A stretch of DNA of 16,168 nucleotides. Origin: Candidatus Krumholzibacteriia bacterium. GTDB lineage: Bacteria; Krumholzibacteriota; Krumholzibacteriia; WVZY01. Made by a program: the position numbers and the translations under genes. The notes beneath the pieces are model-generated. The model saw only the letters and a program-made list of their open reading frames with translations, did not search any database and was not told the origin of the DNA. Location of the stretch: positions 1 to 16,168 of the forward strand of contig JAZGDW010000002.1 in assembly GCA_036478295.1 (NCBI GenBank), given 5' to 3'. The first letter of the stretch is position 1. Every line of letters starts with the position of its first letter. This document shows positions 5,264-13,830 of this stretch, piece after piece.

Positions 5264-5317
5264 TGACAGCATACTGTCACAGTGACAGTATGCTACCATA
5301 ATGACAGCATGCTGTCA
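5264..5317. promoter_or_regulatory. Three tandem 16-bp palindromes TGACAG-N4-CTGTCA, 19-bp period (operator-like array)
   Basis: TGACAGCATACTGTCA (5264-5279), TGACAGTATGCTACCA (5283-5298), TGACAGCATGCTGTCA (5302-5317, perfect palindrome). Confidence 0.7.
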
Positions 5318-5401
5318 TGTTGTGGTTCTGCTCGTGTGCTTTGTGAAAGGCGGTGCGGTGGGCTGGGTGTTCTAAAGCGAGTTCCAGAGTGGCGGAGCGT
5401 C

Positions 5402-5497
5402 GTTGGGTTGGTGACGGAGCCGTTGCGGGAACGAGCGAGTTACGTAGGAGCGGTGGACTGTTGGATTGTTGACGGACCCGTCGCGGGAACGAGCGAG
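5402..5497 (+). repeat. Imperfect 38-bp direct repeat, 58-bp period
   Basis: 5402-5439 vs 5460-5497 identical at 34/38 positions. Confidence 0.85.
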
Positions 5498-5568
5498 GAT
5501 CACCCCGCGCAGCGGGGTAGCCGAGCGAAGTGGAGCGCGGGTCAGGAAACAATCCAACAGCCCACCGC
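5450..5568. repeat. About 120-bp REP/MITE-like element with 21-bp terminal inverted repeats; long hairpin just downstream of the ALDH gene
   Basis: GCGGTGGACTGTTGGATTGTT (5450-5470) pairs with AACAATCCAACAGCCCACCGC (5548-5568) at 20/21; internal hairpin ACCCCGC-gca-GCGGGGT (5502-5518). Confidence 0.8.
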
Positions 5569-5574
5569 CCGAAG

Positions 5575-7023
5575 CTACCGCAGACTCACCCACACCGACT
5601 TCGTCTCCAGAAAATGCTCCAACCCCTCCCGACCCAACTCGCGCCCGAAGCCGCTCTCCTTGCGCCCCCCGAAGGGAGACGCCGGATGAAACAGGTTGTA
5701 CGTGTTGATCCACACCGTTCCGGCCTCGAGTGCCGCCGCCACACGGTGCGCCCGCGCGGGATCCTGGGTCCACACGCCGGCGGCCAGTCCGTAGCAGTTC
5801 GTGTTCGCCCACTCCACCACCTCTTCCTCTTCGTCGAAGGGCAGCACGCAGAGGACGGGTCCAAAGATCTCGTCCCTGGCGACGCTCATCTCGTTGTTCA
5901 CCCCGGTAAGCACCGTGGGCTCCACGTAGTAACCCTTGCCTCCGACCGTGGTCGCGTTACCACCGGTGTAGACGTTCGCGCCTTCACTTTTACCCTTGTC
6001 GACGGCCGCGACGATGCCGTCGCGTTGGGACTCCGACACCTGCGGGCCGAGGCGGGTCTTGTCATCCAGCGGATCGCCGGGAACGTACTTGGCCATCTTC
6101 TGGGTGAGCACATCGAGAAACTGGTCGTGCACGGACTTGTGCACGAAGAGTCTCGAGCCTGCCGTACACACCTCTCCTTTATTATAGAAGATGCCGCCAC
6201 AGGCGCCGCTGGCGGCATAGTCGAGCTTCGCATCCGAAAAAACGATGTTCGGAGACTTGCCGCCCAGTTCCAGCGACACCCGCTTGATGGTGCTAGCCGC
6301 TCCGCGCATGATGGCGCGTCCCGTCTCCGTCGAGCCGGTAAAGGCGATCTTGTCAATATTCGCAGACTCGAGCATGGCTTTTCCAATGACCGAACCCTTG
6401 CCCGGCACAACGTTGACCACCCCGGGCGGAAAACCCGCTTCGAGACAGAGCGCCCCGAGCTTGAGCGCGGTCAGCGGCGTGTACTCGGCCGGCTTGATCA
6501 CGGCGGTGCAGCCCGCCGCCAGCGCCGGCGCGAGCTTGTAACACGTAAGGAGCAGCGGAAAATTCCACGGCACGATCATCCCCACGACACCGACCGGCTC
6601 CTTCAGCGTGTAATTCAGCAGCCCGGGCTGCACGGGAATGCTCTCGCCCTGGATCTTGTCCGCCCAGCCGGCGTAGTAGCGGAACACCTCGACGACGAAC
6701 GGCATGTCGATCTTGCGCGACTCGAAGATGGGCTTGCCCTGGTTGATCGTCTCCAGGCGGGCGATCTCGTCGGCGTCGCGCTCGAGCAGGTCGGCGAGCT
6801 TCCACAGCGCTTTGCACCGGCCCGTACCGCCCATTTTCCGCCACGCCTTCGAGCGGAACGCCGCACGGGCCGCCTCTGCCGCTGCTTCCACGTCGGCGGC
6901 CGAGCCTTCGGCCACTTGACACAACACTTCCTCGGTGGCGGGGTTGACAATCGCGTGCGTGGCGCCGCCGTCCGCATCACGCCATTCGCCGTTAATCAGC
7001 AGTTTGGTGTGCTCGATGGTCAT
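5575..7023 (-). CDS. NAD(P)+-dependent aldehyde dehydrogenase (family 1/2-like), last gene of the box cluster
   Basis: PWNFP, KPAE, FTGSTETG, catalytic Glu in LELGGKSP, catalytic Cys in GEVCTAGSR, EIFGPV, PFGGRKESG; AGGAG RBS. Confidence 0.95.
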   Translation of the reverse strand: MTIEHTKLLINGEWRDADGGATHAIVNPATEEVLCQVAEGSAADVEAAAEAARAAFRSKAWRKMGGTGRCKALWKLADLLERDADEIARLETINQGKPIFESRKIDMPFVVEVFRYYAGWADKIQGESIPVQPGLLNYTLKEPVGVVGMIVPWNFPLLLTCYKLAPALAAGCTAVIKPAEYTPLTALKLGALCLEAGFPPGVVNVVPGKGSVIGKAMLESANIDKIAFTGSTETGRAIMRGAASTIKRVSLELGGKSPNIVFSDAKLDYAASGACGGIFYNKGEVCTAGSRLFVHKSVHDQFLDVLTQKMAKYVPGDPLDDKTRLGPQVSESQRDGIVAAVDKGKSEGANVYTGGNATTVGGKGYYVEPTVLTGVNNEMSVARDEIFGPVLCVLPFDEEEEVVEWANTNCYGLAAGVWTQDPARAHRVAAALEAGTVWINTYNLFHPASPFGGRKESGFGRELGREGLEHFLETKSVWVSLR

Positions 7024-7050
7024 GTGACTCCTGGTGGTTTGTGGGAAAGT

Positions 7051-8484
7051 CTAGAGCCGGACGTATTCGAAATCGAGCGGCTTACCGAAAATACCCCGGT
7101 TTGGTGGAGTGATCCAGTTGGCGAACTTGCCGCGCTCGGTCACCCGCGCCATAATGCCGCGCACGTACTTCTTGTCCTCCTCGGTGGGAGTCCATTTGTC
7201 CTTGCTCGCCTCCCACTCTTCCTTGCTCAGGGGAGTGCCCGCCGGGTCGCAAAAGTGTGTCGACTGCAGGCCAATCTTGCGGTTGAAACGGGCCGACGGC
7301 AGTGTGAACCGAAAATCGATCTGCTCGTCCTCGAGGACCTTGTTCCAGCGGCGCACGGCACGGGCACAATCGTCCATGTAGGCGTCCCTCAGCACTGCGT
7401 TCATGGCGCGCCTCATCGGTATGGTCACGCTTGTGACCTTGCCCTTGTCATTGACCGTCTCAAGCTCGTATCCGACATCCTTGCAGACAGGGTCCGGGTG
7501 TTTCTTGCGGTTCGACTCACCGAAGCGGCCTTTGAGACTCGATCCGAAAAACGACGCCGCGTTGCTCGAGTCTTCCGAGCCGAAGAGGTCCAGGGATACG
7601 GAAAACCAGTGATTGATGTACTTCTGGATGAGATCGAGCGGAATCGCGTCGAACTCGGTCACGTCCTCGTTCGTGCTTTCCTTCATGAGTTGCGCGGTTC
7701 GCCGGATCACGCGCCCCACCCCGGTCTCGCCGACAAAGAGGTGATGCGCCTCCTCGGTCAACATGAACTGAGTGGTGCGTGCCATCGGTGTAAAGGCGCT
7801 TTCGGCCAGCGCGCCCAGCTGGTACTTGCCGTCGCGGTCGGTGAACATGGTAAAGCAAAAGAAATCCAGCCAGTCGAGGATCGGCTCGTTGAACGTGGTC
7901 AGGATACGGGGAGCGTCGGCATCGCCCGAGTTACGGATGAGAAGTTCCTCGGCCTCCTCGCGACCGTCACGACCGAAGAACTGCTGCAGCAGGTAGACCA
8001 TCGCCCACAGGTGACGCGCTTCCTCGACGTTTACCTGAAAGAGATTGCGCAAATCGTAGAGAGACGGCGCGGAGTGTCCCAACTTCTGCTGCTGCTCGAC
8101 CGATCCCGGCTCGGTGTCGGCCTGTGTCACGATGAGCCGCCTCAGGTCGTTCCGGTACTCGCCGGGTACTTCCTCCCACCTGTCTTCCCCCATGCGGTCG
8201 CCGAAATGTATCTTCTCCTCGCCCTTGGTCGGCGTCAGAAAGATGCCCCATTTGTAGTCGGGCATGCGAACGTAGTCGTACGTCGCCCAGCCGCTGGAAT
8301 CCACACTGATCGCCGTTCTCAAGAAGACCTCGTTATCCTGAAAACCCTCCGGGCCCCGCTCCCACCACCATTTCATGAACTTGGGGTGCCACTCGGCCAG
8401 CGCGCGCTGCAGCTTGCGGTTGCCCTTGAGGTCTACGTTATTCGGCACGACATCGTCGTAATTAACATTGGAAGAGATGTTCAT
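7051..8484 (-). CDS. boxB: Benzoyl-CoA 2,3-epoxidase, oxygenase subunit BoxB
   Basis: VPNNVDL, WWWERGPEGFQ, LRTAISVD, VRMPDYKWGI, QADTEPGSVEQQ, di-iron EEARH and EEAHH motifs, FTDRDGKYQL, C-terminal DFEYVRL; ATG at 8484 overlaps the boxC stop (TGATG). Confidence 0.95.
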   Translation of the reverse strand: MNISSNVNYDDVVPNNVDLKGNRKLQRALAEWHPKFMKWWWERGPEGFQDNEVFLRTAISVDSSGWATYDYVRMPDYKWGIFLTPTKGEEKIHFGDRMGEDRWEEVPGEYRNDLRRLIVTQADTEPGSVEQQQKLGHSAPSLYDLRNLFQVNVEEARHLWAMVYLLQQFFGRDGREEAEELLIRNSGDADAPRILTTFNEPILDWLDFFCFTMFTDRDGKYQLGALAESAFTPMARTTQFMLTEEAHHLFVGETGVGRVIRRTAQLMKESTNEDVTEFDAIPLDLIQKYINHWFSVSLDLFGSEDSSNAASFFGSSLKGRFGESNRKKHPDPVCKDVGYELETVNDKGKVTSVTIPMRRAMNAVLRDAYMDDCARAVRRWNKVLEDEQIDFRFTLPSARFNRKIGLQSTHFCDPAGTPLSKEEWEASKDKWTPTEEDKKYVRGIMARVTERGKFANWITPPNRGIFGKPLDFEYVRL

Positions 8485-10127
8485 CAGGCTCTGCTCCAGT
8501 CGAATTCCGGGTTGGTGGTCTGGCCGTATGAAGTGAGCGCTCCCCGCTCGCCGGTGGCATTGGGACGTGTAAAAATCCAGTTCTGCCACGCGGAAAGCCG
8601 GGCGAAGATCCGGCTCTCCATCGATTCGGGTCCGACAAAGCGCAGGTTGGCCTCGAGACCGGTGAGCGCATCCGGCGATAGCGACACGCGTTCCTCGATG
8701 GCCACGCGGACCTCGTCTTCCCAGTCTATATCATCCGGTATCTCGGTGACAAGACCGAGCTCGTACGCTTCCGCGGCGTCTACGAGCGCGCCGCTCTTCG
8801 CCAGTGCCGCCTCGACCCGCTCGTCGGCCTGGTAAAAGCGGTTTTGCAAGCGGCTAAGATGGTGGTACATCGGCAGGTGGCCGTCGTTCAGGACGCTCAC
8901 CCCGATGCGGTTCTTGCCGTCCGAGTCGTCGAGCATGTAGACCCGATCAGCTGCCAGGGCGATCTCGAGCAGGCTGCCGGCGAAACACGACCCCGGCTCG
9001 ATCAGCGTATAAAAGGTGCGGGCCGTTATGTCGATCATCTTCAGCACCCTTCCCTGCTGGAGGAGCACCTCGCGCGCGAACCAGTGGTCCTTGCGCGCGT
9101 GCAGCGCCTCGTCGAGGGCGATGAGCCATGCGGGGTTCCCCTCGCTGTGTACCACGACCGCACCGACGGTCCCGTAATTGAAACGGAGCTGCAGGACCGC
9201 ATCGCGCAACTCGCGCCACATACGAAGCGCATACCAGTCCGAACCGAGCTGTGCGGCGTCTTTCGGTATCTCTGAGTCTTTCTCCTCGGGTCCCTTGATC
9301 GTAATCTTTGCGGTGCGCGCCGCGACGTCGATCGCCAGTGTGACGTAGCGGTACTTGTAGGTATCACCCTCCACTTCGGACTGCACCGTTTCGAGGGTGA
9401 TCCCCCTGGCGTCGTTCCCTTTACCGGCGAGCTCCTTGAGACGGCCCGCCACCTTCTCCTCGAAGGTCGAGGACGGATGCGTGTAATCGACGAGATTCCA
9501 TTGCACGGCTCGCTTGCCCTTTACCCCCTCGGCCACCGTGCAAAAGACGTCGGCCAGGTCCCGTCGCACCTTGCGCTTGTCCACCACACGCGTCAGCCCT
9601 CCCGTTCCCGGCAGCACGCCGAGGTACGGCACCTCGGGCAGGCTGACCGTGGACTTGCGGTCGTCGATCAAATGGATTTCCTCACAGGCCATGGCCAGCT
9701 CGTAGCCGCCGCCGGCGGCGAGACCGTTCAATGCCGCCACGTAGTACTGGCCGCTCTTTGCCGTCGCCTCTTCGATATTGATCCGGGTCTCGTTCGTGAA
9801 CTTGCAAAAATTCACTTTGTGGCTGTGACTCGACTGTCCCAGCATGAAGATGTTCGCCCCTGCACAAAAGGTACCCTCTATCGCACTCGCGATGCACACC
9901 ACCGCCACCTCTGGGTGTTCGAAACGAAGCCGGTTCACCGCGTCGTTCAGCTCGATGTCAACACTGAGATCGTACGAGTTGAGCTTGAGCTTGTATCCCG
10001 GCCTGAGCCCGTCTTCTTCCGAGACGTTCAGCCGGATGTGCGCGATGGGGCCGTCGACCGACAGCTCGATATGCTTGTACTTGTCGGGGTGGGTGTTGAA
10101 CTGAATCTTTTCTGTTTCTGTCGACAT
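8484..10127 (-). CDS. boxC: 2,3-epoxybenzoyl-CoA dihydrolase BoxC (double crotonase fold)
   Basis: GLRPGYKLKLNSYDLSVDIEL, LRFEHPEV, FCAGANIFML, KVNFCKFTNETR, SLPEVPYLGVLPGTGG, SPDALTGLEANLRF, RLSAWQNWIF. Alternative GTG start at 10145 overlapping the upstream stop. Confidence 0.95.
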   Translation of the reverse strand: MSTETEKIQFNTHPDKYKHIELSVDGPIAHIRLNVSEEDGLRPGYKLKLNSYDLSVDIELNDAVNRLRFEHPEVAVVCIASAIEGTFCAGANIFMLGQSSHSHKVNFCKFTNETRINIEEATAKSGQYYVAALNGLAAGGGYELAMACEEIHLIDDRKSTVSLPEVPYLGVLPGTGGLTRVVDKRKVRRDLADVFCTVAEGVKGKRAVQWNLVDYTHPSSTFEEKVAGRLKELAGKGNDARGITLETVQSEVEGDTYKYRYVTLAIDVAARTAKITIKGPEEKDSEIPKDAAQLGSDWYALRMWRELRDAVLQLRFNYGTVGAVVVHSEGNPAWLIALDEALHARKDHWFAREVLLQQGRVLKMIDITARTFYTLIEPGSCFAGSLLEIALAADRVYMLDDSDGKNRIGVSVLNDGHLPMYHHLSRLQNRFYQADERVEAALAKSGALVDAAEAYELGLVTEIPDDIDWEDEVRVAIEERVSLSPDALTGLEANLRFVGPESMESRIFARLSAWQNWIFTRPNATGERGALTSYGQTTNPEFDWSRA

Positions 10128-10141
10128 GTCTTTTCGAAACC

Positions 10142-11191
10142 TCACTTGCCTTGGTTGTCCGAACTCACGCGGATGACGAGCTTGCCGAGCACCTCGCGTT
10201 TCTCCATCAACCGGTGCGCCTCCGCGGTATCCGCGAGATCCATCACCCTGCCGATCGTTGCCTTCATCGCTCCCCGGAAGAGCAGCTGCAGCGGGGCGAG
10301 CAGCTCGTTCCGGGTGCCCGTGGTGGACCCGATCACCTCGAGCTGGTTATAGAAAATATAACGAAGGTCCGTGGGCGGGTCGTAGCCAGTGGTGGCGCCG
10401 CACGTCAACAGGCGGCCGCCCTTCGCCAGGCTCCTCAGACTCTTGACCCAGGTGGCCTTGCCGACGTAGTCCACGCATATGTCGACGCCCCTCTTGCCCG
10501 TTTCCTCGCGCACGCGCTCGAGGAAATCCTCGTCTTTATAGTTGATGAGAACGTCCGCGCCCAGCTCGCGGCAGAATTCCAGTTTGTCGTCGCTGCTCGC
10601 CGCCGCGATGACGCGGGCGCCCGCGCCCTTCGCAATCTGGATGCAGGCGCTTCCCACGCCCGCGGCCGCGCCCAGAATCAAGACGTCTTCCGCCGGACGG
10701 AGCTTACCACGCGTGACCAGCATGCGCCACGCCGTTACAAAAACCATCGGTACCGCCGCCGCTTCTTCGTACGAGAAGTGGTCGGGGATCTTGACGACGT
10801 TATCTTCGGGGACAACGAGCTTCTCGGCGTACCCCCCCCACACGTGCTCTCCAATGATTTGCAGTCTGCGGCACATCGAGGCGTCGCCGCGCACGCACAC
10901 CTCGCACCTGCCGCAAGTAATCGACGGGTTGACCAGCACGCGGTCGCCGACCGCTACGTCGCTTACCCCGTCGCCGATGGCGGCCACACGGCCGGCGGCG
11001 TCGCATCCCGGCACATGGGGCAGCGGCAGCTCGATACCGGGCAGGCCCTGCCTGACGAAGATGTCCAGGTGGTTGAGTGACGTGGCCCGCACGTCGATCA
11101 GTACCTCACCCGACCCGGCGGCAGGCGCCTCGAGTTCACCCACCTCGAGGACTTCGGGACCACCGTGCTTTTTGAAATAAACTGCCTTCAC
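10142..11191 (-). CDS. MDR-superfamily zinc-binding oxidoreductase (alcohol dehydrogenase/quinone reductase-like)
   Basis: GroES domain (HGGPEVL, SLNHLD, PHVPGCD), structural-Zn CGRCEVC-x7-C, Rossmann GAAAGVG; lacks canonical catalytic-Zn Cys and GHE. Confidence 0.9.
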   Translation of the reverse strand: MKAVYFKKHGGPEVLEVGELEAPAAGSGEVLIDVRATSLNHLDIFVRQGLPGIELPLPHVPGCDAAGRVAAIGDGVSDVAVGDRVLVNPSITCGRCEVCVRGDASMCRRLQIIGEHVWGGYAEKLVVPEDNVVKIPDHFSYEEAAAVPMVFVTAWRMLVTRGKLRPAEDVLILGAAAGVGSACIQIAKGAGARVIAAASSDDKLEFCRELGADVLINYKDEDFLERVREETGKRGVDICVDYVGKATWVKSLRSLAKGGRLLTCGATTGYDPPTDLRYIFYNQLEVIGSTTGTRNELLAPLQLLFRGAMKATIGRVMDLADTAEAHRLMEKREVLGKLVIRVSSDNQGK

Positions 11192-11202
11192 CCGTTCCCC
11201 CG

Positions 11203-11616
11203 TCAGGTCCGGAAGCGCTCGAATCGCTCGCGCAAATCATCGGGAATAGAGATCGCCTTGAACGTGTCGTTGTCTATGGCGACGGTGGTTATTTCCGCCG
11301 TCGTTGCCAGTACACCGTCCGCCACGCGGGTAATCGTGTAACGGATGGTTATGGATTTCTTGCCGACACGGACGAGTTCCAGCTCGACGCGAATGCGCTC
11401 TCCGAAACGGAGCGGACTCTTGAACTGCGTTTCGATGCGAACGGCCGGAAAACCGATGTTCCTCTCGACGATAATTTCGCGGTACGAGATGCCCAGAGCG
11501 TCGCCGAACCAGTCCTCAAAGGTCCGGTGAAAATAGTGAAAAAACCGCGGGTAATAGACCACGCGTGCGTGATCGACTTCACCGAAACGAATGGTGAACT
11601 CCTCGGCGTATTTCAC
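11203..11616 (-). CDS. Acyl-CoA thioesterase (4HBT/YbgC hot-dog fold), likely aromatic-CoA thioesterase
   Basis: IRFGEVDHARVVYYPRFF motif, FKSPLRFGE; GTG at 11616 gives a family-typical 137 aa (TTG at 11715 would overlap the upstream gene by 35 nt). Confidence 0.85.
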   Translation of the reverse strand: MKYAEEFTIRFGEVDHARVVYYPRFFHYFHRTFEDWFGDALGISYREIIVERNIGFPAVRIETQFKSPLRFGERIRVELELVRVGKKSITIRYTITRVADGVLATTAEITTVAIDNDTFKAISIPDDLRERFERFRT

Positions 11617-11680
11617 CTGCCACCCGTCCCGGTCGAGCTGGGCGTAGGCGCCGGCATTCTCGAGCGACGGCAACCCATCA

Positions 11681-12010
11681 TCAGAGCTCTCTTTCTGCTT
11701 TGGCGGCCAGGACAAAATCGCTCTCGGTCAGACCGTTGATCTTATGGGTCCATATGGTGAGCTTTACTTTGCCCCAACTCAGATAGATGTCGGGGTGGTG
11801 TCCCTGCGCCTCGGCCAGCTCACCCACCTTCACCGTAAAGTCCATGGCCTCGCGAAAGTTCTTGAAGCTGTACTCCTTCTCCAGGTGGTGATCGTCGACG
11901 GACTTCCAACCGCCCCCGAGCTGGTCGAGCAGGGATTGGATCGCCTTTTCGCCAAGCGGCGGCACCCCGCCGCGGCACGGTACACATTCCTTATTGGCCA
12001 GTTCGCTCAT
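11681..12010 (-). CDS. Pterin-4-alpha-carbinolamine dehydratase (PCD, PhhB family)
   Basis: MSELANKECVPCRGG start, FKNF, catalytic EAQGHHP, WTHKINGLTESDFVLAAK. Confidence 0.92.
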   Translation of the reverse strand: MSELANKECVPCRGGVPPLGEKAIQSLLDQLGGGWKSVDDHHLEKEYSFKNFREAMDFTVKVGELAEAQGHHPDIYLSWGKVKLTIWTHKINGLTESDFVLAAKAEREL

Positions 12011-12026
12011 CTGCCGCATTCCCTTT

Positions 12027-12046
12027 CGCCGGGTCCTGACCCGGCG
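12027..12046. other. GC-rich intergenic hairpin between sodA and PCD, no U-tract
   Basis: CGCCGGGTC-ct-GACCCGGCG perfect 9-bp inverted repeat; followed by AAAG on the coding strand. Confidence 0.6.
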
Positions 12047-12063
12047 GCCAGGACGACATCGCG

Positions 12064-12675
12064 CTACTTCGCGGCTTCGAAACGCCGCGCCACTTCCTGC
12101 CAGTTGACGACGTTCCACCACGCCTTGACGTAGTCCGGGCGCCGGTTCTGGTAGTTCAGGTAGTACGCGTGCTCCCATACGTCGATTCCCAGGATAGGCT
12201 TAAGGCCCTCGGATATCGGGTTGTCCTGGTTCGGCGTCGAGGTCACGGTCAGCCCGCCGTCGGACTTGACGGACAGCCATGCCCAACCGCTGCCGAAGCG
12301 TGTCGCGGCCGCTGTGGCGAGCGTATCCTGGAACTTTGCGAAGTCACCGAACGCGGCGCTAATCGCCGTGGCAAGGGCGTCTTGCGGTTGGCCGCCCGCG
12401 TTGGGGCTTATGATGGTCCAGAACATGTTGTGGTTGTAGAAACCGCCGCCGTTGTTGCGCACCGCCGTACGAATGTCCTCGGGGACCGCATCGAGGTCCG
12501 TCAACAGATCTTCGATACTCTTGTCCTTCAAATCGGAGTGTTTGTCGAGGGCGGCGTTGAGATTGTTGGTGTAGGCGGCGTGGTGTTTGCCGTGATGGAT
12601 CTCCATGGTCTTCGCGTCGATGTGCGGCTCGAGCGCGTTGGTCTCGTACGGCAGTTTTGGAAGTTCGAAAGGCAT
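12064..12675 (-). CDS. sodA: Superoxide dismutase, Mn-type signature
   Basis: [16 protein letters not shown] (GG, Mn-type), NQDNP (Mn-type Gln), [18 protein letters not shown]. Confidence 0.93.
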
Positions 12676-12833
12676 GATGGACTCCTCCAGGTGAGTATGA
12701 ATCCCCGGGCACCCCGTGGGCGGGAAAGAGCTCGTGAACTCACAACCGTTTGGTCTTGTGCGGTGATTACAACGAATACAGGCCTACGCGCAGTAGCAAT
12801 CGACACAACGGCTAGACGCAGGATTTCGCAGGT

Positions 12834-12862
12834 AGTATAAGCAGTTTAGTGACGCCGGTCAA
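12834..12862 (-). promoter_or_regulatory. Sigma70-like promoter of sodA and probably the downstream box genes
   Basis: Minus strand TTGACC (12862-12857) - 17 nt - TATACT (12839-12834). Confidence 0.65.
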
Positions 12863-12899: not shown

Positions 12900-13400
12900 C
12901 TATTTTCCCCCAGCGCTGGTCAGGTCGGTCTTGAGTTCACATTCGGGACATTCCTCACCGGCCAGGTGCCACTCGAGAAACTCGTGGAAATGTTCTATGA
13001 CGGGGCTGAAATCCTTGGGGCAGTTGGCGAGATAATCGAGGAATACCAGCAGGCGTTGGTAGGTGTCCTTCCCGACTACGTGTTCGATCTCGCAGGCCTC
13101 GAGCTCGGCTAAGGACTCGTCCACGCGCAGGATCTCCACCAGAAAGCGCTGCAGGACCTCGAAACGGTCGTTGACCCCCTCGGCCAGACGTTTCCCCCTA
13201 GCGGAGAGCTTCACCTCGCCGTAGGAAGGATGGACTACCAGCCCTTTTGTTTTCAACGTGCGCAGGGCCTCCGAGACGCTGGGCATGGTGATCCCCATCT
13301 TTTCCGCGATGGCCTTGACGCGCACCGGGGCGTTGTCGCGGCCCAGGCGAAGGATCGTCTTCAGGTACATCTCCATATTGGGTGAAAGCTTCTTGTCCAT
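12900..13400 (-). CDS. DtxR/MntR-family metal-dependent transcriptional regulator with Cys/His-rich tail
   Basis: EMYLKTI, HTH IAEKMGITMPSVSEAL, GEVKLS, EACEIEH dimerisation/metal motif. Confidence 0.92.
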   Translation of the reverse strand: MDKKLSPNMEMYLKTILRLGRDNAPVRVKAIAEKMGITMPSVSEALRTLKTKGLVVHPSYGEVKLSARGKRLAEGVNDRFEVLQRFLVEILRVDESLAELEACEIEHVVGKDTYQRLLVFLDYLANCPKDFSPVIEHFHEFLEWHLAGEECPECELKTDLTSAGGK

Positions 13401-13433: not shown

Positions 13434-13763
13434 CTAGATGCTGAAGGATTCGCCGCAGCCGCAGGTGCTCGTGGCGTTGGGATTGGAAAAGACGAAACCC
13501 TTGCCGTTCAGCCCGGTCGTGTAGTCCAGCGTGGTGCCGGTGAGAAAGAGCTGGCTCTTTGCGTCCACCAACAGGCGGACGCCGTCCTTTTCGATCACGG
13601 TGTCGCCGTCTCGTTTCTCGGTATCGATGGAGAGGTCGTAGGAAAATCCCGAACACCCACCGCCCTTGACGCCGACCCGGAGATACGCTTCCGCCGGCGC
13701 GACCTTCTTTTCCTCGATTGCCGCCTTGATGGCCTCTACCGCATTGTCCGTTATGGTAATCAT
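13434..13763 (-). CDS. A-type iron-sulfur cluster carrier (HesB/IscA/ErpA/SufA family)
   Basis: LRVGVKGGGCSGFSY and NPNATSTCGCGESF; GGGAG RBS 7 nt before ATG 13763. Confidence 0.95.
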   Translation of the reverse strand: MITITDNAVEAIKAAIEEKKVAPAEAYLRVGVKGGGCSGFSYDLSIDTEKRDGDTVIEKDGVRLLVDAKSQLFLTGTTLDYTTGLNGKGFVFSNPNATSTCGCGESFSI

Positions 13764-13800: not shown

Positions 13801-13830
13801 ATTATAATACCCGGGACACGTAATAGTCAA
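13801..13830 (-). promoter_or_regulatory. Sigma70-like promoter for Fe-S carrier plus regulator
   Basis: Minus strand TTGACT (13830-13825) - 18 nt - TATAAT (13806-13801). Confidence 0.65.

Follow-up and report, generated by a model that had tools for sequence, protein, structure and literature searches.

The Box pathway of Aromatoleum (Azoarcus) evansii and the Burkholderiales comprises the BoxAB epoxidase (PDB 3PER/3PM5), BoxC, BoxD, BoxR and a benzoate-CoA ligase. Here we describe a box locus of a Candidatus Krumholzibacteriia bacterium, found in a stretch of 16,168 nucleotides (the window) that is the whole of contig C112 of genome G000 (3.5 Mb, 316 contigs, 90.9% complete). As in the canonical pathway, BoxB and BoxC score over their curated cut-offs (NCBIfam models), boxC precedes boxB, and the iron ligands and the benzoyl pocket are identical; no boxA was found in the window or elsewhere in the genome. 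We consider it somewhat more probable than an even bet (about 0.55) that in this order BoxA is replaced by two proteins encoded elsewhere, the reductase FprA and the 7Fe ferredoxin FdxA, which would serve an intact BoxC-BoxB pair carried by a household operon.

We surveyed 121 genomes (G000 and 120 relatives), of which 36 lie within the order and 85 belong to the same class only. The 22 genomes with the operon-type BoxB are called operon genomes below. We further used 36 boxB genomes from other groups, and the best 80 of more than 600 metagenomic boxB loci (this set is biased to window-type BoxB, and its short contigs can hide boxA).

The box genes and the operon that carries them

The genes of interest are all on the minus strand, in the order iscA, an MntR/DtxR-family gene, sodA, a gene for a pterin-4a-carbinolamine dehydratase (PCD) homologue, a thioesterase gene, an MDR-family gene, boxC, boxB and an aldehyde dehydrogenase (ALDH) gene. 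Gaps are short (sodA-PCD 53 nt, PCD-thioesterase 64, thioesterase-MDR 11, MDR-boxC 14 and boxB-ALDH 27), and boxC and boxB overlap by 1 nt. From sodA to ALDH this is the one-strand arrangement, with small gaps and an overlap, that the original prediction had described from the letters of the window. Its features are as follows.

12834..12862, minus strand: conserved sigma70-type promoter before sodA, likely the operon start (pattern match, conserved among relatives)
12064..12675, minus strand: sodA, Fe/Mn superoxide dismutase (closest model Mn-type, below its cut-off); backbone gene
11681..12010, minus strand: PCD homologue (PF01329); backbone gene
11203..11616, minus strand: hot-dog (4HBT/YbgC-type) thioesterase (PF13279); box-linked
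10142..11191, minus strand: MDR-family oxidoreductase (closest structure PDB 2eih); backbone gene
8484..10127, minus strand: BoxC dihydrolase (TIGR03222, 776 bits, cut-off 712)
7051..8484, minus strand: BoxB, diiron benzoyl-CoA 2,3-epoxidase (TIGR03225, 693 bits, cut-off 499; PDB 3per, 574 bits)
5575..7023, minus strand: aldehyde dehydrogenase of ALDH1/BADH type, not BoxD (family match; true BoxD matches at 76 bits only)

BoxB keeps all six diiron ligands (E125, E155, H158, D216, E245 and H248) and the pocket residues Q121, T124, S128, F198, F208, F211 and T215, as ligands and benzoyl pocket are named for the A. evansii enzyme (PMC5489048). Frames are intact, and the catalytic residues are invariant over the 61 BoxB sequences aligned; the closest named BoxB (92% identity) is from a Candidatus Krumholzibacteriia bin. 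Judged from its sequence, the window encodes an intact BoxC-BoxB pair. Short BoxB-like proteins (∼200 bits) were also seen in family f7 (G050, G055, G060 and G082) and in archaeal bins (L055 and L056), and three of these four f7 genomes have a distant homologue of the thioesterase.

No BoxD was found in G000: when a true BoxD (677 bits against a cut-off of 444) was used as the query, the best match in this genome reached 76 bits, and it is the window ALDH. Because BoxD is absent, the window ALDH likely takes its role as a non-orthologous stand-in; such a replacement has also been raised as a possibility for SAR324 and SAR116 (PMC4782131; 10.64898/2026.07.17.739263). The ALDH gene is directly 3' of boxB in most loci (5–8 kb away in three out of 13), and an ALDH accompanies boxCB in other phyla too.

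Two families of the order share the arrangement sod-PCD-thioesterase-MDR-boxC-boxB. Our neighbourhood survey found the linkage to sod kept in 20 operon genomes out of 22 (in 17 a single contig reaches to boxC, in three there are contig breaks between; G017, one of the 20, lacks PCD), so that the sodA linkage put forward for the window is conserved in relatives; the two exceptions are a locus that is cut off and G024 (with another gene in front). The set sod-PCD-MDR is also present in seven box-less genomes and in G016, G026 and G028, where boxCB lies elsewhere; BoxB of G016 and G026 falls in a different clade of the BoxB tree. An orthologue of the thioesterase (E<1e-40) occurs in exactly the 22 operon genomes, with five weaker matches outside the order. 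We regard sod, PCD and MDR as a household backbone, since they are kept in genomes without adjacent box genes, and thioesterase, boxC, boxB and ALDH as a box module, since the backbone persists without box and the thioesterase tracks the operon. The two operon families are sisters in the BoxB tree, a placement that fits the presence of box in their common ancestor and repeated loss. In G011 (L249/L250), a single-contig genome, the sod gene is in two pieces ∼570 kb apart (rearrangement or misassembly).

The MDR protein has been suggested as the reductase of BoxB. Its gene is directly before boxC in all operon genomes examined, and a similar MDR gene is found near boxC in one Myxococcota locus; however, MDR stays beside sod-PCD in 10 genomes that have no adjacent box genes, and its folds are of the zinc-alcohol-dehydrogenase/quinone-reductase type, with no flavin or Fe-S domain. 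Enzymes of this type move hydride, not single electrons. We consider this role for MDR very improbable.

The missing BoxA and a candidate electron donor

The BoxA model matches only ferredoxin domains in G000. Not one of the 121 genomes has boxA at E<=1e-12, single-contig genomes G015 and G057 included, though 30 of them have boxB over the cut-off; a true boxA, used as a positive control, was retrieved at 682 bits. Among the 36 boxB genomes of other groups there is likewise no BoxA over the cut-off (11 have partial matches), and boxA is seen in three of the 80 metagenomic loci (two out of 51 with at least 1.5 kb downstream). With BoxA over the cut-off in none of the 30 boxB carriers surveyed here and in none of the 36 from other groups, its absence is common and not peculiar to this locus. 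Missing BoxA has been remarked on before (PMC10803450), and boxBC alone is listed in PMC12008989. For BoxR, the genome-wide search of G000 gave a best match of 75 bits against a cut-off of 204, limited to the shikimate-kinase part. The original prediction had called the window devoid of boxA, boxR and ligase: the first two were not found anywhere in the genome, while for the ligase the statement holds for the window only. A benzoate-CoA-ligase-family protein (398–400 bits, cut-off 375) is encoded on contig C194, within a tryptophan/anthranilate cluster (C194:3005-13192, L158; tryptophan dioxygenase, kynureninase, salicylyl/anthraniloyl-CoA monooxygenase and ligase). Ligases of the C194 type pass the cut-off in 17 of the 121 genomes, and 16 of these are boxB carriers.

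Could boxA be missing only through incomplete assembly, or could the cluster be a dead remnant? G000 is indeed an incomplete and fragmented draft, and BoxA-less clusters are read as impeded in PMC10803450, but the searches above, which include single-contig genomes, largely refute an assembly artefact; the intact frames, the invariant residues of the 61 BoxB sequences and the joint retention of thioesterase and FprA speak against a remnant. We find either explanation scarcely credible. Genome surveys score boxA-less box clusters as incomplete; here such clusters are the rule.

No substitute reductase for BoxB is named in the main texts of the literature found, a body of work that does not take in the primary Journal of Biological Chemistry papers on BoxA and BoxB. 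Our candidates are two proteins of G000:

C77:5695-7077: FprA/adrenodoxin-reductase (AdR)-type NADPH-ferredoxin reductase (389 and 362 bits, full-length, to PDB 1LQT and 1CJC)
C249:18025-18330: FdxA, 7Fe ferredoxin (115 bits to ferredoxin I; PDB 1AXQ and 2V2K)

The FAD- and NADP-binding regions of FprA align with those of the FprA/AdR family. FprA is found in 26 of the 121 genomes, namely every one of the order's 25 boxB carriers plus G004, and is absent from 10 of the 11 box-less order members and from all 85 class-level genomes. Counted by genus, it is present in seven out of seven with boxB and one out of 10 without (nominal Fisher p 0.0004, an overstatement since related genomes are not independent). 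On a backbone tree (SOD-PCD-MDR-IscA, 35 genomes, FastTree; its root placement is poor, it lacks G002 and G005, and three tips are based on SOD alone), box changes state five times and FprA four times, on the same branches except for G004. None of the five FprA genomes tested has a P450. In two of the 80 metagenomic loci (L327 and L329; 39% identity) fprA is directly 3' of boxB, and both of these loci have a flavodoxin near boxC.

FdxA is found in 22 out of 22 operon genomes and in 31 out of 32 boxB genomes (68 genomes searched). The N-terminal part of BoxA is a two-cluster ferredoxin domain; FdxA shares 30% identity with it over 76 residues, a likeness at family level only. A predicted BoxB-FdxA complex scores 0.35 (best control, 0.06), which gives weak support (the runs agree in at least 71% of contacts, with a partner pLDDT of at least 84): of 157 solved complexes 116 reach the mark used, as do two of 215 mismatches, but at scores of 0.60 or less only 18 of the 157 do so, along with both mismatches. 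The action of BoxA is transient and needs only minor amounts of the protein (PMC4498308), so that its exchange for FprA/FdxA is plausible. A reference FprA passes electrons to a 7Fe ferredoxin in vitro, though modestly (PMC6208970). PaaE, an analogue of BoxA, can be non-essential (PMC13186573). Of the alternative donors in the original prediction, a host ferredoxin is thus the likely one; a flavodoxin drops out, as none was found in G000, and so does MDR, which is not box-specific.

Other candidates were tried and rejected. The only thioredoxin-like [2Fe-2S] ferredoxin of G000 is the complex I subunit (the protein of locus L097, used as a query, had no match), a 62-aa ferredoxin is found in none of 35 order relatives, and a glutathione-reductase-type ferredoxin reductase with Rieske ferredoxins occurs in one of five genomes. 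A PaaE-type reductase was found in none of five genomes (with no known positive among them), and no paa system was found in G000. Among the matches listed for 60 genome loci, there is no recurring reductase adjoining the box cluster. In the metagenomic set, a flavodoxin is beside boxC in 13 of the 80 loci (L325-L382 set), DUF6306 follows boxB in 10 and a TetR gene follows it in 15. Directly 3' of boxB in G065, a small cysteine-bearing protein (L097:10736-11074), possibly a thioredoxin-like ferredoxin, has no Pfam family match. G000 also encodes two fusions of a thioredoxin-reductase-like and a NapH-like membrane Fe-S protein (C9:24693-27017 and C180:323-2443).

Promoter and metabolic setting

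Of 29 genomes, 21 have the promoter pattern TTGAC-N17-TAT.AT before sod, and four of these 21 are box-less (the pattern was taken from the tested regions themselves; three of 1160 shuffles match). It also precedes iscA at 12 out of 12 loci and 74 of 2333 G000 genes, and the sod promoter is a plain consensus of the lineage. By contrast, no match was found before PCD (0/15 loci), thioesterase (0/17), MDR (0/19), boxC (0/19), boxB (0/19) or ALDH (0/13). As the pattern precedes sod but no inner gene, a single transcript from sodA to boxB is likely, and so is the earlier proposal that the box genes are transcribed from the sodA promoter with no evident internal promoter. Genomes of family f2 usually have a hairpin with a T-run ahead of the sod promoter. 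Upstream of the operon are three further features:

13801..13830, minus strand: sigma70-type promoter-like site before iscA (11/12 matches; pattern at 12/12 iscA loci)
13434..13763, minus strand: IscA/ErpA-type Fe-S carrier (TIGR00049, 127 bits, cut-off 58.8)
12900..13400, minus strand: MntR/DtxR-family metal-dependent repressor (Pfam PF01325/PF02742)

iscA is the upstream member of the conserved neighbourhood and not box-specific (it is also found in box-less G013, G030 and G011), and the MntR/DtxR gene is at the spot before sodA in G000, G001 and G007 only.

The original prediction went on to wire the cluster to O2 or reactive oxygen species (ROS). On this account the box genes were set behind sodA so as to be induced when the cell meets O2 or superoxide, and may serve to consume O2; such coupling would benefit a facultative organism whose reductase is O2-labile, and the sod linkage (20/22), the close spacing, the lack of an internal promoter pattern, the lack of BoxR and the MntR/DtxR gene before sodA in three genomes all agree with it. 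But the promoter and sod-PCD-MDR are found equally in box-less relatives, and the link to sod is broken in G024. Spacer and leader at the sod promoter vary among relatives, and no shared palindrome was found in the 29 regions (non-palindromic or degenerate sites could be missed). FNR-type sites (scanned here and below with what we take to be the consensus), with one mismatch allowed, are present in only two of 15 sod regions, both formed by the −35 hexamer. We judge this account improbable. The wiring to O2 or ROS is not borne out, as the promoter is the plain consensus of the lineage, is shared with four box-less relatives and has no conserved operator; nor is the idea of an O2-consuming module, as G000 has two heme-copper oxidase subunit I genes and BoxB keeps its benzoyl-CoA pocket. 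The box genes are probably carried along by the sod promoter and answer neither to substrate nor to ROS.

G000 also has a class I benzoyl-CoA reductase operon, had-oah-dch-tetR-bcrCBAD (C271:487-9217, L167), with a perfect FNR-type site upstream. For bcrCBAD, had and oah, four out of five pass their cut-offs and BcrA is just under; the dch homologue is under its cut-off too. BcrB passes in 28 of the 121 genomes, in family f1 only in G000, G001 and G007, and at all three of these f1 loci the FNR-type site is upstream of the bcr operon. FNR-type palindromes number 50 in G000 (6–9 expected). The bcr operon of family f2 has GNAT and Rrf2 genes at its end. No ferredoxin is found beside bcr in 10 loci. 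The genome further has nitrate-reductase-like genes (by sequence only). Together with bcr, the oxidases and the aryl-CoA ligase, these make box likely the oxic branch of a benzoyl-CoA hub with two modes, and the layout is likely that of a facultative benzoyl-CoA degrader. An unregulated box arm would be workable, given that Aromatoleum strain EbN1 expresses its two benzoate pathways in essentially every condition (PMC9765128). bcr in Krumholzibacteriota has been published (PMC10936416), in a paper whose main text leaves box genes unmentioned.

Some other elements are found in the window. A REP-like hairpin element (∼190 nt, 5376-5570) follows the ALDH stop and has matches on 46 G000 contigs; it may end or stabilise the operon transcript. 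At 5264-5317, 16-nt palindromes of the TGACAG-AT-CTGTCA type are arrayed head-to-tail, and such arrays (two to six copies, with a period of 19 or 22 nt) are on ∼13 contigs, also C26, C30, C41, C69, C80, C107, C124, C129, C136, C203, C314 and C316. The contig end (15080-16168) has low GC and a TPR gene in pieces.

Proposed mechanism and relation to known systems

In the mechanism we propose, benzoate or a relative would be activated by the C194 aryl-CoA ligase, or benzoyl-CoA would arrive via peripheral routes. Electrons would pass from NADPH to FprA, to FdxA and to the diiron site of BoxB, the two carriers being a split functional equivalent of BoxA. BoxB would epoxidise benzoyl-CoA with O2, BoxC would open the ring and release formate, the ALDH would oxidise the semialdehyde, and general beta-oxidation would complete the pathway. 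The thioesterase, likely an aryl-CoA release valve, would free CoA when the pathway stalls. With the box genes riding on the sod promoter and the bcr operon behind an FNR-type site, O2 availability would pick the branch. A wider claim is tentative, and we hold it as doubtful rather than probable: BoxA would be the exception and most BoxB proteins would run on interchangeable household carriers, here a P450-style chain of FprA and 7Fe ferredoxin. Its ferredoxin would also feed benzoyl-CoA reductase in the absence of O2, and the switch from ring reduction to epoxidation would be made by a single electron pool and by O2 itself instead of a substrate sensor.

Several observations weigh against these proposals. 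In this order both fprA and fdxA lie away from the box genes, 17 of the 25 boxB carriers of the order belong to one genus, and G004 has FprA without boxB. FdxA is also found in 17 of 36 box-less genomes, and an FdxA was among the weaker partners of a reference FprA, with 2- to 4-fold stimulation (PMC6208970). FprA is found in only three of the 36 other BoxA-less genomes and in none of the 85 class-level genomes, seven of which have full or partial boxB; as it is rare outside the order, FprA is not a general answer to the loss of BoxA. The ligase is below the cut-off in six of the 22 operon genomes (one partial), the FNR-type site is absent at seven of 10 bcr loci, and a Crp/Fnr regulator for this site had no match with a strict motif. 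G000 has motif matches to an NrdB-like protein, a membrane desaturase and a Rieske-type oxygenase, any of which could be the real client of FprA; a crude motif scan for Fwd/Ftr as client gave no match.

These further possible clients lead to an alternative, in which the pathway works, FprA serves another enzyme, and BoxB is fed by FdxA via 2-oxoacid:ferredoxin oxidoreductases or Rnf, as benzoyl-CoA reductase would be under anoxia, or by another donor. G000 has a set of such oxidoreductases and Rnf-like genes (the latter by sequence only), fdxA adjoins oxidoreductase genes in G002, G011 and G012, the bcr clusters have no ferredoxin of their own, and in the class-level boxB genomes an FdxA-like protein is present without FprA. 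However, this alternative leaves two observations unexplained: the absence of FprA from 10 of the 11 box-less order members (six of which keep FdxA and six an oxidase), and the position of fprA directly behind boxB in L327 and L329. 2-oxoacid:ferredoxin oxidoreductases are O2-sensitive, and the set in G000 has an FNR-type site upstream. We regard this alternative as unlikely, and keep replacement of BoxA by FprA and FdxA as the preferred reading.

What is newly found here is an unlinked FprA that tracks boxB, FdxA in all operon genomes, and fprA behind boxB in metagenomes. With a two-protein substitute named, four expressed proteins are enough to test how BoxB is reduced when BoxA is missing. 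If the proposal is true, aerobic ring cleavage would be added to Krumholzibacteriota, so far described for anaerobic dearomatisation.

Compared with known systems, the locus is predicted to work like the Box pathway without being a canonical cluster. Unlike the canonical pathway it lacks BoxA (FAD, two [4Fe-4S]), BoxR and BoxD, its ligase is unlinked, its ALDH is of a different family, it is inside a sod-PCD-MDR operon, and its candidate reductase chain is encoded elsewhere. A COG0824-type thioesterase alongside is a feature shared with the box genes of EbN1 (PMC6449761). The two-mode degraders Thauera and Aromatoleum combine a class I benzoyl-CoA reductase with Box, as G000 does; unlike them, G000 has no BoxR/BzdR-type sensor and no ferredoxin beside bcr. 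Whereas some metagenomic boxCB loci are linked to a flavodoxin, in this order the donor candidate is in trans, a 7Fe ferredoxin with an FprA-type reductase. FprA and 7Fe ferredoxins have been described as serving P450s, whereas the client proposed for this order is a diiron aryl-CoA epoxidase.

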